DNA from: Octopus vulgaris
Lineage: Eukaryota
DNA: 64,000 nucleotides
Direction of reading: 5' to 3'
Assembly: GCA_951406725.2 (NCBI GenBank)
Contig: OX597816.1
Coordinates: 156,302,001 to 156,366,000 of the forward strand
Shown here piece by piece: positions 23,448 through 61,893 of the stretch. Both the position numbers and the translations under genes were made by a program. Each line of letters opens with the position of its first letter. Position 1 is the stretch's first letter. The notes beneath the pieces are model-generated. The model was not told where the DNA came from. It saw only the letters and a list, made by a program, of their open reading frames with translations, and searched no databases.

Positions 23448-23807
23448 CATTATTATTATTATTTTGCGAAGAATGCATCTTGTGCGGTATCATTATACCT
23501 TTCAACGTCTTTGTTGTACCAATTCAAATCACACAATGTATTTCTCAGTATGTAAATTTTTTGCTATATTTGCATGTATATTTTAGATAGGTTTGCAGAT
23601 TCCTACTATAGCCATATCTGATATATAATAACGCCACCCAAAGTAATCTTTTCAGTAATATTTCGGACCACCACAGCTCACTCACGGAAAACAAGTGTTC
23701 GTGTCAGAAAATTCATCCACCTTCGGAAGAATTTGTCTAGATGACTCTAAATAATAATTTTTCCTCTTCTTAATACTTTCGGTAATAAGTCGAGTTAAAC
23801 AATTGTA

Positions 23808-26084
23808 CACTCTGCTTAATGCAGACTTGAAAATTTTGGCCAAGGTGCTAGCCAAGAGGTTGGCGCTTGTCATCGAGAAACTGGTCGACAAGGCGCAAAC
23901 ATGCGCCGTGCCGGGCCGGACCATCCATGACAACCTCAACCTGATGCGCTACATCATAGACTGGGTAGTTAACGAACCTGGCATGGGTGGGGCGCTGATC
24001 AATTTGGATCAATCGAAAGCTTTCGATAAGGTGGACCATCGATACTTGGAGGCAGTCCTCAGAGCGGCTGGATAGCCGCTTTGTACAGAGGCATCCGTTC
24101 GGTAATTCGCGTAAATGGACATCTATCGAGACCTTTCGACATCGCACGTTCGGTCCGTTAGGGATGCCCCCTCTCGTCGCTTCTATACGTATTGACTCTC
24201 GAGCCATTATTGCGGAAGCTGGCAACTTTGATGGGCATCTCGCAAGAACTAGGATGCGGGACGAGCGTGTCTGCATACGCGGACGACGTCACCGTCATAG
24301 TGTCTAGCCACGAGCACATCGAGCAAGTCGGCGAGACACTGAAAATCTACGAAGCGGTGACAGGAGCGAAAATCAACCGGGAAAAGTCAGTGGGCTTGCG
24401 ACTAGGCACCTGGAGAAGCAAGCCCATGCCGTCAACCAGCGCCTCCGTCGTGAGGCGCTGGACCGACGGCCCGGTCTGGTTCGGTCCAGACCACCAAGTG
24501 GAGAAGAACTGGAACGAGATAACGAGTAGAGTGGTCACTCTCGGCCGGCAATGGGCCGAGAGGAAACTGTCCCTAAAAGGTCGGGCGGAGGTGACCAACA
24601 CGTACATCGCGTCCGTCATCTACTACCGCCTTGTGCCTTGTCCCGACCCTACCATCACCAAATTAGAACGCATTCTCTTTCGCTTCTTGTGGAAAGGATG
24701 CGTCCCGATGGTCAGGCGATCCATTTGCTGTCAACACCCGTTAAAAGGAGGACTGGGCATGCCGTGGTTGATGATGCGCAGACACGCGCTGAGACTGCGA
24801 CATCTCAGGCTCTTCGTAGACGACGGTGAACAGGTGTGGTCGCCGTTTGTGAGGCACGCTTTCCGCAGCTCGTCTCCATGACCGAACTGCAGTCGTGGAT
24901 CAAAAAGAGGCCGAGGAAGGGCGAATGGCACCGCGAGTGTCGCGTTGCTCTCAAGCAACTCTGCCGTCCTGGGTCGACCTTGAGTGACTTCCATCACAAC
25001 CAAAGCATTCTATAGGGGATTAGTGGAGGGGAGGTACGACGACGAACTCGGGGCGAACCTGGACGTCAATGAGGAGTACCTGATCCGCCTGTTCGGGACG
25101 ACTTTCGGACCAGGGCCCATGGACAACTTCCAGGGATCCCTGGTCTGGCAGTGCTACCGAGAAGCGCTACCCGTTCGGGATAAGCTCTACAGACACGGCT
25201 CGAGAAACACGGGGCCGACCTGCCCGAGATTCGGTCAGAGCGACGAAACCGTTCTGCACGCACTCGTGCAGTGTCCAACAATTTCCGACCTGTGGGCTTA
25301 TGTCGAACAACTGCTGTCACGTGTGGGACGAGTCGGTTTATCAGCTGAGTCTATCGTCAATATTGTCACGCCTCCTTCCTTCAAACGGGAAGGAAGAGCT
25401 ATTTTCATCATCCTTGTGGCTATGGCGAAGGAATGTATCTGGTGGACGCGTCTGAAAGGATTGGAGACAAACACTTTCCTCTCTGGTCAATCTCTCATCA
25501 ACTTCTTCAAGTACCACTTGAAAAGGAAAGTGAGAGTAGAGAGGCAAGTTTTGTCTAGCGAATGTTTTAAAAAAAGATGGGTGAATGTAGCAAGGATGGC
25601 ACGTATGAATGACGAAGCCACCTTGAGCATAATCCTATGAACCCAGAAATTGAAAACAGAGGGTTACCCACTTGCAAACAAATGTGGTAACATATAACAA
25701 TATTGACCAAGGTTACCGTGGTCTTTTTCGTAGGCTTTTCTTCCCACGGATAAACCTTACTTGCTTTCCCCTTTACACCATACATCATAACACTGTGATA
25801 CACGATCCCTATTGATCGTTTTTCTTTCCTCTTCCCCCTTTTCCCCCCTTTTTTCGTCTCTTTTCATTTCTCTTTTCTTTTGTTCCTTTTCCTTTTTTTT
25901 TTTTTTTTTCTTTTTTTTTTTGTTCTTTTTTCCCTTTTACGATCCCTTTTGATCGAAAACCTACGCCACCTTTTTTTTGTTTCTTTTGTTTTTTTGTTTT
26001 TTGTTTTTTTCATCCCCCAAAAGAAAAGCTCTACCTTGTAACTTGTCCCATCTGTGTGCAGCCCTGTGTGGCCAATAGAGAAAC

Positions 26085-26619: not shown

Positions 26620-26881
<262 letters not shown>

Positions 26882-29489: not shown

Positions 29490-30432
29490 CAGGAGTGGCT
29501 GTGTGGTAAGTAGTTTGCTTACCAACCACTTGGTTCCGGGTTCAGTCCCACTGTATGTCACCTTGGGCAAGTGTCTTCTACTATAGCCTCGGGCCGACCA
29601 AAACCTTGTGAGTGGATTTGATTGACAAAACTGAAAGACGCCTGCCGTATTCCCTTCCGCCATTGCTTCTTTGCCAAGTTGTTTTGGCGCCTTTTTCTCC
29701 CAGCCTCTTTGATTCTTTCTCTCTCTCTCTCTCTCTCTTGGTCACTGCTCCTGTCCTCAGCCTTCCACCCTCCTTGGTCCCCTCTCTCTCTGTCCCTCTT
29801 TCTCTCACTCTTACCCACTTGCGACTTGCTGCCTCAGCCATTCCGTTGCCAACGGCCGCTTGTTCAACATGTGTCTCTTCGCCGAAAAGGTAATTATTTT
29901 TCCACGCTTGCTGATAAATTGTTTTTGTGTCTCCTTTTGTCTCAAAGCCGTAGGGCGCCTGTGTCATCCTTGTTTTTAACCGTTACTGTCTTCAAAAAAG
30001 TTTTTTTCGTTTCATGTTCGTCTCTGTTGCGTTGCATTCTTTCCTTCTGGGGCTGGCCGATTCAGAGCAGATCTCAGAATTAAACAGCCGAAATTTGCGA
30101 TGATGAATCGGTTTCTGACTGAAGAACGAAGACTTTGAATGACCCGTCTGTCTCTTATGTTCGTCCCTTCGTGTATTTCACGTTATTTATATATGTAAAG
30201 GTTTATTTTATTATTATATATATATATGTGTGTGTGTGTATGTGTCCGTGTTTATGCCCTCGCCCCCCGCCACATCGCTTGACAACAGATGCTGGTGTGT
30301 TTAAGTAACTTAGCGGCCCGGCAAAAGAGACCGATAGAATAAGACTAACTCCTGGGGTCGATTTGCTCGACTAAAGGCGGTGCTCCAGCATGGCCGCAGT
30401 CAAATGACTGAAACAAGTAAAAGAGTAAAAGA
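29490..30432 (+). mobile_element. SINE family A split by a nested insertion (head 29490-29650, tail about 30225-30432)
   Basis: Head ggagtggctgtgtggtaag...ccttgggcaagtgtcttct and tail catcgcttgacaac...cagcatggccgcagtcaaatgactgaaacaagtaaaagag are collinear with the intact copy at 34413-34860. Confidence 0.85.
29651..30190 (+). mobile_element. About 540-bp inserted repeat (PLE-like?) with structured RNA motif at 30051-30125
   Basis: Interrupts the SINE at its central microsatellite; pyrimidine-rich 5' part, T-rich 3' end abutting tatatat; shares motif architecture with 49120-49345. Confidence 0.5.
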
Positions 30433-37756: not shown

Positions 37757-37956
37757 GAAAACACAAAGAGAAAACGCAACAACACGAGGACGTGGAACAA
37801 GTATAGTATTATTGAACGCTCAGGAAAGAAGGAAACAAGGAGGATTTAACGTTTCGAGCGGAGCTCTTCGTCAGAAACATGGGAAAATGAAAGATCCAAA
37901 GAAGGGAAGATGGAGGAAAAAAATCGCCAACGGTACCAACGGTACACACGCGGTCA
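37757..37956 (-). mobile_element. Penelope-like pLTR fragment carrying a hammerhead
   Basis: Minus strand pyrimidine-rich lead, HHR motif, then ttcctgagcgttcaataatact...gttgttgcgttttctctttgtg, related to the post-HHR segments at 2200 and 14060; (TA)n nearby on both sides. Confidence 0.65.
37844..37878 (-). ncRNA. Minimal type I hammerhead ribozyme motif, canonical core
   Basis: gttt-CTGACGA-A-GAGC-tcc-GCTC-GAAA-C-GTT-aaat; palindromic AACGTT at stem III. Confidence 0.75.
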
Positions 37957-49119: not shown

Positions 49120-49345
49120 TTGTTTTCACTGTCCTGTTCTGTTACCACTTTCAACCTCCGCAAAAAATCCCAAATGTTATTTAATTTGCTTTGCGGGAAG
49201 GACTGTTTCAACGAAGTTGCGTCTTGTTCTTGCTTTCGAAACATGGAGTAGTTGAAACAGGGACAACTGAAGAAGAGGAATATTCTTTGTGTTGTATGTC
49301 TCTTTTCTCTGCTTTTTTTTTCGCTGTTGTCTTCAAAACAAAACT
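49120..49345 (+). mobile_element. Repeat fragment (PLE-like?) with structured RNA motif at 49196-49303
   Basis: Perfect 10-bp pairing ctgtttcaac/gttgaaacag, CGAAAC..GTA and CTGAAGAAG words, T-rich 3' end. Confidence 0.45.
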
Positions 49346-53226: not shown

Positions 53227-53798
53227 CAGTGCTAATAATATTTTCATGACTTAAAAACAAAGATTTCTTAGGTTTTAGCAACTCATGGCAGTTGTCTGCA
53301 ATACACATAGGTATTATGAATATGCACACTCTCAAACCGGAACACAGTGCACATATATCTGTTAGTTTTATGTTGGATGCGTTTAGGTGCAGTGGCTAAA
53401 CACAACGTTAACTCTATTACATGTGTAAGACTTTCGAAAGTGGTGACAGATAACAATAATAGAGCTGTGTTTTCTATTGCAAATACTGCAACACACATAT
53501 GCATATATATATATATATATTATTTATGGATACGTAGGTGGGTGTGAATAAATATGACTGATGAGAGATTAGCTCAGACTATCATTTTCACATCTGACCG
53601 CTTTCAGCAATGATTATCAAAGTTCTGTTTGTTTGGAAACTTTGACTTACCAAGGTTATAAGACGGCCTCAGATTTATTCAAGTCAAACTATTAAAATAT
53701 CTAAATATATATATATTTACACAAGCACGTAGACACAAGCTCTCATAGACATGAAACAAAGAGTGAGACCAATGTAGATATATGTCAGGCTATTTAAG

Positions 53799-61119: not shown

Positions 61120-61893
61120 GTAGAGCTCGATGAGGATGTCCTGCAAACCCTGGTGGAATAAAATCCCATTGTATATTCTGAAGAACTAGCAGAGAAGCTT
61201 GGATTTGTTCATTCAACAATTCATCGACACCTGCGTGCCATTGGAAAAGTCAGCAAATTGAGTCAATGGGTTCCTCACAAACTTTACGAGTCCAGCCGTG
61301 CACAGAGAGTGAATGTGTGCTTTTCCTTGTTGTCACGTCATTTGGTAGGGCGGGGGACCGAATAATACTGGTGACGAAAAATGGTTTCTATATAAAATAG
61401 TTTCTCTATGAAAATGTCAAACACCGAAGACAGCGGGTAGGAAAAGTAGACACACCGGCACACCAAGCTAAAGAAGGTTTTCATCCACATAAGGTGTTTG
61501 GTGGGATACGAAAAGTTTAGTCCACTTTGAACTTTTAAATCCAAACTAAACGATAACAAAGGAGATCTACTGCGTGCAGCTTGAGCGATTAGAAGTCAGC
61601 GTTAGAAGAAAAATGAGAAAAATCTTCTTGTTAAGTGTTCTTCCATTAGGGTAAAGTGAGGATGATATTTCAAAGGCTGGAGAATTTTGAATGGGAAACG
61701 ATGCCCCTCCCAACATATAGGCCAGAAACTGCTCCATCTAATTATCATTTATTTCGCAGTCTTCAAAATCATTTGGACGGAAAAATATGAATTCTGTAAA
61801 TGAGGTCAAAAGAGTACTGGAAAAGTATTTTTCGTCAATTTTTGGAAGAGGGCCCTTGAAAATGTACTGGATAGATGGAAGAGCTTTGTAGAA
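61120..61893 (+). pseudogene. Mariner transposase pseudogene
   Basis: VELDEDVLQTLVE*NP..EELAEKLGFVHSTIHRHLRAIGKVSKLSQWVPHKL, TGDEKWFLY, FHPHKV, WWDTKSLVHFELL, FEWETMPLPTYRPETAPSNYHLFRSLQNHL, LDRWKSFVE; stops and frameshifts, third catalytic D reads N. Confidence 0.93.

Follow-up and report, generated by a model that had tools for sequence, protein, structure and literature searches.

A candidate hammerhead ribozyme with a split-core, non-circular strand order in octopus repeats and Naiad Penelope-like elements

Two copies of a pseudoknotted motif in an octopus window

The window analyzed here, a 64,000-nucleotide stretch of the Octopus vulgaris genome (contig OX597816.1, positions 156,302,001–156,366,000 of the forward strand), is AT-rich and microsatellite-rich animal DNA, with short interspersed repeats that resemble those known from octopuses. 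Among 93 window open reading frames (86 that passed a length and complexity filter and seven that were added), the only above-cut-off matches are a LINE-like reverse transcriptase (RT) and a zf-RVT domain at 24162–25637. These belong to a broken LINE-like element (23780–25700, plus strand), in which RVT_1 (E = 2e-9) and zf-RVT (E = 8.5e-7) are followed by a T-rich 3' region. A short inverted repeat with TTCGAA at each end lies at 26620–26670, and weak helix-turn-helix matches (E about 0.003, below the cut-off) at 61162–61362 (plus strand) are perhaps a DNA transposon remnant. On the minus strand, a pyrimidine-rich repeat between microsatellites contains an ordinary type I minimal hammerhead (37845–37885, at 37874) with CUGACGA, one extra A, a 4-pair stem II, a palindromic CG stem III, and a 4-pair stem I.

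CGAAA followed by CTGANGA 10–50 nt later occurs at only two places when both strands of the window are searched, hereafter copy 1 and copy 2. The words named for copy 1 in the original prediction lie exactly where it placed them (A, 30051–55; A', 30085–89; GAAA, 30090–93; B, 30055–64; B', 30104–13; CTGAAGA, 30119–25), with G30055 belonging to both A and B. A and A' form 5/5 Watson-Crick pairs, and B and B' form 10/10 pairs, including two G-U. Copy 2 (49196–49273) has the same word order and both 25-nt spacings. A complete helix listing showed that GAAA of copy 1 is preceded by stem III, the cut triplet, and stem I. A/A' corresponds to stem II, and B/B' to a helix that bridges stems I and II. 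Within stem II, A' supplies the strand that ends at C11.1, and the upstream A strand supplies its partner, which begins with G10.1 (5 pairs in either copy). The A-B-A'-B' pseudoknot is present as predicted and is no loop pseudoknot: in this non-circularly permuted hammerhead, stem II and the bridging helix cross. The NUH triplet and stem III of copy 1, which had been described as unclear and possibly decayed, are both intact upstream of GAAA (AUC at 30071–73, with a 6-bp stem III and a 6-bp stem I).

Copy 1 is part of a multi-copy repeat on the plus strand (29930–30190, the stretch compared rather than mapped ends), followed by a TA/TG microsatellite. Its strands, all on the plus strand, begin with the leader (30043–30047) of a proposed helix IV, which pairs with the tail (30128–30132) and would seal the break between A9 and G10.1. 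Four of the five pairs of this helix form with the window letters, and 30132G, which accounts for 0.97, 0.98, and 0.91 of depth in three runs of the copy 1 family, restores the fifth. The stem II 5' strand (30051–30055, G10.1 = 30051) is followed by the 5' strand of helix B (30056–30064, pairing with 30104–30112), which is continuous with stem III. Strand 16.x of stem III, together with the AUC triplet (30067–30073; U16.1 = 30072, C17 = 30073), makes six pairs with 30093–98; the predicted cut is at 30073/30074. Strand 1.x of stem I (30074–30079) forms 6/6 Watson-Crick pairs with 30113–18. Next comes block G (30085–30098), which combines the stem II 3' strand, GAAA, and strand 15.x of stem III (C11.1 = 30089; G12, A13, A14, and A15.1 = 30090–93), then the 3' strand of helix B (30104–30112), and strand 2.x of stem I, which runs straight into C3–A9 (30113–30125; CUGAAGA 30119–25, G5 = 30121, G8 = 30124). 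A possible alternative partner for helix IV is 30010–15, which forms 5/6 pairs with 30126–31 in the window letters. Copy 1 has no hairpin V.

In copy 2, also on the plus strand, the leader strand of helix IV (49155–49158) forms 4/4 Watson-Crick pairs with the tail strand (49275–78), with one extra A after A9. Hairpin V (49159–49195; 6/6 outer and 5/5 inner pairs) stands directly before stem II, as in the available Naiad records. The hammerhead body (49197–49273) consists of stem II (49197–201/49233–37), helix B (49203–12/49251–60; 10 pairs), and stem I (49224–32/49258–66; 9 pairs), with GAAA at 49238–41, CUGAAGA at 49267–73, and the triplet GUC at 49221–23 (predicted cut after C49223). Stem III is worn (two core pairs, then a C-A mismatch), and stem I and helix B compete for 49258–60. 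Another option for the tail strand (49275–49278) is the stem II 3' strand, with which it could make four pairs (two of them G-U) after one extra base. Copy 1 is close to the intact form of its family, and copy 2 is probably weakened.

Some sequence is shared around the two copies. Eight identical bases lie exactly 23 bases after CUGAAGA in both (30149–30156 and 49297–49304), and three common family variants of copy 1 fall near this word, at 30148–30154. About 14 bases found upstream of copy 1 (29986–30000) recur in similar form downstream of copy 2 (49327–49342), and copy 1 sits between the two units of a 12-base direct repeat (30014 and 30157, a spacing of 143 bases). The placement of the 14-base word and the 12-base repeat may reflect tandem or permuted element ends.

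Chance, covariation, and variation within the copy 1 family

We wrote a descriptor of the arrangement that demands a UH site, at least 4 pairs in stem I, 2 in stem III, 4 in the upstream stem II, and 7 in helix B. It matches the window twice, at the two copies, and finds no match in 1000 dinucleotide shuffles of the window (nine without the B term), a flattering figure because the descriptor was written with both copies in view. As further nulls, we used 216 loci pre-selected for the same core words (21 and at least 120 viral loci, plus 75 metagenome loci); 0/216 match the full descriptor and 2/216 match without helix B. These viral and metagenome loci, retrieved as possible homologues by DNA pattern, contain none that is similar to either copy (blastn). 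A relaxed window scan that allows one core mismatch gave no convincing third copy; its four rows are copies 1 and 2 themselves, copy 1 again in an offset reading, and a weak match at 53546. Local Rfam scans around the copies (E ≤ 10) gave four and five weak matches (snoRNA, lncRNA, and microRNA) and no hammerhead. A scan of the whole window (E ≤ 5) gave 429 matches; among the 150 matches listed, all of them microsatellite-like microRNA families apart from two pestivirus-family matches, none is at the motif.

In a structure-guided comparison of 25 pairs between the two copies, 10 are the same, 12 are changed on both sides, two are changed on one side, and one is broken. Five of the six compared pairs of stem I are changed on both sides, and MAFFT alone aligned each strand of stem II with its counterpart in the other copy. 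Nested folding recovers helix B and stem III in copy 1 and hairpin V in copy 2. With the window letters, the nested minimum-energy fold of copy 1 pairs the leader with core bases 30121–24, which is an inactive fold, and the z-scores of the two copies are not unusual (-0.94 and -0.32). It is very improbable that the arrangement arose by chance in two unrelated repeats, an explanation that is largely refuted. It draws on a descriptor fitted after the fact, on the presence of only two copies in the window, and on these ordinary nested fold energies, and is opposed by the zero counts in shuffles and core-word loci, the 12 two-sided changes, and the same layout in independent Naiad records (read by eye).

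Part of the 29930–30190 stretch is present in 20 of 24 listed sequencing runs (10 studies, four organisms), none of them labelled as RNA. Three large runs, from as many organisms, contain 590, 410, and 113 matching contigs, and another run, possibly of RNA, contains 10; most are 90–99% alike, and all listed bins are covered in three runs. Variants of the family, read from unphased contigs at a threshold of at least 8% of depth, occur at 21 places in 261 bases, 14 of them within 30043–30132, and many of these are places where copy 1 departs from its own family. The 36 bases that make up the core and stems I and II contain none of the 14 motif variants (P = 3.6e-4) and none of the 21 variants of the whole 261-base stretch (P = 0.039); the stem II 5' strand, both stem I strands, and C3–A9 thus have no variant at the threshold. 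At paired positions, 9 of 11 variants keep or restore the pair (30110A being counted with the majority letter of its partner). In helix B, 30058 C>T together with 30110 G>A keeps the pair; in stem III, a G-U pair becomes G-C through 30095 T>C; and one pair is gained with 30099 G>T. Two common family letters each break one pair in the 3' strand of helix B (30107T at 0.45–0.69 of depth; 30104G at 0.14–0.27). The part of the motif that starts at 30048 also occurs in a second family, which has other sequence upstream of that point and a different B strand (loose ends at 30048 and 30065), and some contigs start at 30009, right after the TA/TG microsatellite.

The original prediction assigned the motif to the type II permutation, an assignment that does not hold. 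Stem I would have only 0–1 bp at all of the UH sites between GAAA and CUGAAGA (three in copy 1 and two in copy 2). With 0–6 extra bases allowed, no more than one pair with C11.1 is available to the copy 1 strand that follows A9, which leaves this copy without a stem II after A9. A partly decayed type II hammerhead with a loop pseudoknot would agree with GAAA preceding CUGANGA and with the 5-pair hairpin stem III that can form at the UH site at 30109. However, that hairpin is disrupted by 30107T, a letter common in the family, and we regard this reading as hardly tenable.

The same layout in Naiad Penelope-like elements

Naiads were reported to lack canonical hammerheads (PMC8557442; Craig et al. 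2021). In the available parts of that paper, some Naiads carry core words that fit no descriptor, including eight 'half core' cases (one octopus family and one squid family are in this group), and the fold at these words is not resolved. We read by eye the 62 plus-strand CTGANGA places in 54 Naiad families of its File S5 (19, 18, 16, and 9 over the four CTGANGA words), searching the given strand only and missing words broken at line ends. The split layout was recognized at 11 of the 62 places, from ctenophore to octopus, and represents about eight independent types. These are the ctenophore Naiad_Bfor (with only two pairs in stem I), one Clytia record, the near-identical Amil, Aacu, and Anas records, two part-12 records (one probably Naiad-2_Movir), a crustacean record (part 19), the near-identical octopus records Obim and Ovul, and a squid record with an imperfect stem II. 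Near-identical records apart, no relation is seen among the stem sequences of these places, nor between them and the window copies. In 10 of the 11, the tail forms helix IV (3–8 pairs) with a leader strand, after which comes a hairpin V that ends at or next to G10.1, and the leader of the eleventh lies beyond the passage shown. The order IV, V, II, B, III, I of copy 2 is that of these 10 places (by eye).

A complete type CSG hammerhead with the same B helix was read by eye at six of the 62 places, all of them nematode (Naiad-1/-2/-3_Nbra, Hcon, Asuum, and one Pristionchus record). About seven places are ambiguous (spider [Ptep and part 17], ostracod [Dst], and hemichordate), with an S-G-C-like word order and a visible stem I or III and no clear stem II; these are possibly further variants. 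By eye, no structure was apparent at the remaining 38 or so places, and 0/11 bivalve families have the motif at the core word.

The window copies are probably the 3' end of a Naiad-type Penelope-like retroelement, an assignment made from their architecture. Six short words, four of them from the window copies, are absent from the available Naiad supplement of PMC8557442, which indicates that the copies belong to families other than those published. No Penelope-type ORF (N-terminal GIY-YIG, CxC motif, C-terminal RT) was found among the 93 ORFs scanned or by peptide words, and both copies are short end fragments; given the lack of shared words and of such an ORF, it is architecture only that ties them to Naiads. 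TA-rich runs, which would suit the (TA)n insertion of Naiads, adjoin both copies, but they occupy 16% of the window as a whole. In a search around copy 1 for a pLTR arranged in partial tandem or inverted, with a 30–40 bp tail, the 12-base direct repeat was the only element recovered. Copies 1 and 2 may represent termini of other Naiad families or of short non-autonomous derivatives. The proposal of an undescribed ribozyme-derived motif at a retroelement end is upheld in that the motif is hammerhead-derived, pseudoknotted, covarying, located in a repeat, and undescribed in the literature searched; its place at a Penelope-like end is only probable.

The Naiad records also bear on an ordinary type-SGC hammerhead, in which stem II would form with the strand after CUGANGA (after one extra base in copy 2 and five in the copy 1 family) and the upstream A strand would be competing or regulatory. 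The S, G, C block order and the short link between stems I and II match that type as described in the available text of PMC10085705. A stem II strand within 1–2 bases after CUGANGA, giving an intact block C, is missing from copy 1, and copy 2 offers the four tail pairs noted above. The majority letter 30132G, which completes the 5-pair leader-tail helix of copy 1, also permits a 4-pair stem II after five extra bases, and because it serves both helices, the copy 1 family alone cannot separate the two orders. In contrast, the stem II made with the upstream strand has 5 pairs in either copy, more than the tail could offer, and is unvaried in the copy 1 family, and in 9 of the 11 split-form Naiads the tail, which pairs with the leader, is unable to make three pairs with the stem II 3' strand when 0–6 extra bases are allowed (by eye). 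In the two octopus Naiads, the tail could make five pairs (three G-U) after four extra bases, compared with six Watson-Crick pairs upstream (by eye). Furthermore, the bridging helix published for SGC (as far as that text is available) follows the downstream stem II strand, whereas here its 5' strand comes after the upstream strand. An ordinary SGC hammerhead is therefore unlikely, and we favor the split-core order, with stem II formed by the upstream strand.

Proposed mechanism and comparison with known hammerheads

The strand order of the motif is the helix IV leader, an optional hairpin V, the stem II 5' strand, B, stem III, UH, stem I, and the stem II 3' strand, followed by GAAA, stem III, B', stem I, CUGANGA, and the helix IV tail. 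The motif holds all hammerhead parts in this non-circular, split-core order, and we consider it likely that it self-cleaves at a probable Naiad-type 3' end. The chain is opened between A9 and G10.1 and would be resealed by the leader-tail helix, such that A9 is linked to G10.1 through helices IV and V rather than by one phosphate, and the B/B' helix would draw stems I and II together. Because helix IV (and hairpin V) would hold the loose ends, we infer that A9 could still pair with G12 on top of the G10.1-C11.1 pair.

In hammerheads, G12 acts as the base, and the products carry a 2',3'-cyclic phosphate and a 5'-OH. The usual hammerhead chemistry, with the G8 2'-OH as the acid, is proposed here, with predicted cuts after C30073 in copy 1 and C49223 in copy 2; the A9-G12 pairing and the role of the G8 2'-OH in the hammerhead core are described in the available part of PMC11300833. 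Given that CUGANGA is transcribed last, cleavage would be possible only once the whole motif has been made, and the roughly 25 pairs of II, B, III, and IV would keep the two products together. By analogy with other Penelope-like elements, the motif is likely to release element RNA from read-through or tandem transcripts, and since the same layout ends many animal Naiads, it likely cuts their RNA as well. In the available text of PMC11167929, the hammerhead of one Poseidon element required protein for cleavage, and insertion in vitro did not depend on it.

The same observations on Poseidon would suit a hammerhead-derived fold without self-cleavage, which binds the RT protein or positions the template, or which cleaves only with that protein. 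This possibility also fits the poor cleavage of minimal Penelope hammerheads on their own (accessible part of PMC4209133), the lack of a tested precedent for a break inside the core in the accessible literature examined, and the competing inactive fold of copy 1. On the other hand, the UH site, A15.1-U16.1, CUGANGA, GAAA, and G10.1-C11.1 are kept across unrelated stems and are unvaried within the family, a pattern of selection that would be expected of catalysis more than of binding. We therefore give the non-cleaving fold little weight. More broadly, we lean toward an active split-core ribozyme that lies beyond the six strand orders considered possible and that, together with the nematode CSG form, would be the missing ribozyme of Naiads across animal phyla.

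With respect to the features that define hammerheads, both copies contain CUGANGA and GAAA (unvaried in the copy 1 family). A NUH triplet with A15.1-U16.1 closing stem III is found in each (AUC with 6 pairs; GUC with 2 pairs and then a mismatch), stem I starts just after H17 and runs up to C3 (6 and 9 pairs), and a G10.1-C11.1 stem II adjoins G12 (5 pairs per copy, with the upstream strand). Types I and III were rejected because the word order is reversed (CUGANGA does not precede GAAA), and Rfam gave no hammerhead match. A type GCS reading was also rejected, and a decayed, palindromic minimal type I was dropped, stems I and III being located upstream of GAAA. By its sequence, the motif is a full hammerhead in a non-circular order, outside types I–III and outside SGC as defined.

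If the split-core order is confirmed, the rule of six hammerhead strand orders would be broken, and a core that can be opened at A9-G10.1 would provide a new handle for ribozyme design. Non-circular permutations would move from rare environmental RNAs to high-copy repeats that are abundant in animal genomes, and the view of Naiads, which are dominant in some invertebrate genomes, as hammerhead-free would be overturned; one argument for hammerheads as mere passengers of Penelope-like elements would be removed. The split-core and CSG forms are circular permutations of each other, which suggests a testable route between them (tandem terminal repeats), and one retroelement clade would keep two interconvertible hammerhead permutations. 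In mostly open-access literature, we found no description of a split between A9 and G10.1 or of a non-circular hammerhead in an animal genome or Naiad. Neither such a split nor a permuted Naiad hammerhead appears in the available parts of PMC13725137, PMC10162972, PMC7936874, PMC11300833, PMC11167929, and bioRxiv 10.64898/2026.07.22.740005.

The closest permuted forms are those of PMC10085705 (Eckert et al. 2023), in the available text of which the hammerhead is divided into blocks S, G, and C, with six orders allowed. There, at most 1–2 extra bases next to CUGANGA are assumed, and block C is taken as uninterruptible; SGC and CSG were validated, both with a helix joining stems I and II, and CSG was known from two metagenomic sequences. 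Like SGC, CSG, and GCS, the window motif has the cyclic strand order, the short 1.x-11.x link, a Watson-Crick bridging helix, and all core bases. As in SGC and CSG, this helix joins the far sides of stems I and II, with B after the stem II 5' strand and B' before strand 2.x of stem I. Unlike these types, its ends fall between A9 and G10.1, inside block C, and its stem II 5' strand stands at the start of the motif instead of after CUGANGA, with helix IV and hairpin V in addition. One extra base after A9, as in copy 2, is common in known hammerheads, as far as the available texts of PMC10085705, PMC8557442, and PMC4209133 describe them.

Type II and pistol-like pseudoknot hammerheads (available part of PMC11300833) are similar in that a pseudoknot lies beside the core and, in type II, GAAA precedes CUGANGA. 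However, in these forms A9 is directly followed by G10.1, and either the cut lies between GAAA and CUGANGA or a pseudoknot replaces the outer part of stem II, neither of which is found here. The type I minimal hammerheads of Penelope/Poseidon, Neptune, and Hydra elements and of retrozymes (accessible parts of PMC4209133 and PMC8557442) share the core words and the Penelope-like setting with the window motif, and in many of them a single additional base follows A9. They differ in having CUGANGA before GAAA, no pseudoknots, and a short palindromic stem III that needs dimers, whereas the window motif has a long stem III and looks monomeric. Compared with the window copies, which use CUGAAGA and have no attached ORF, the Naiad 3' ends in the available records of PMC8557442 ('HHR_core' and 'HHR_half_core' cases) belong to other families, and by eye 11 places, including two octopus families, have the identical split layout, with (TA)n flanks and a 3' position as further likenesses.
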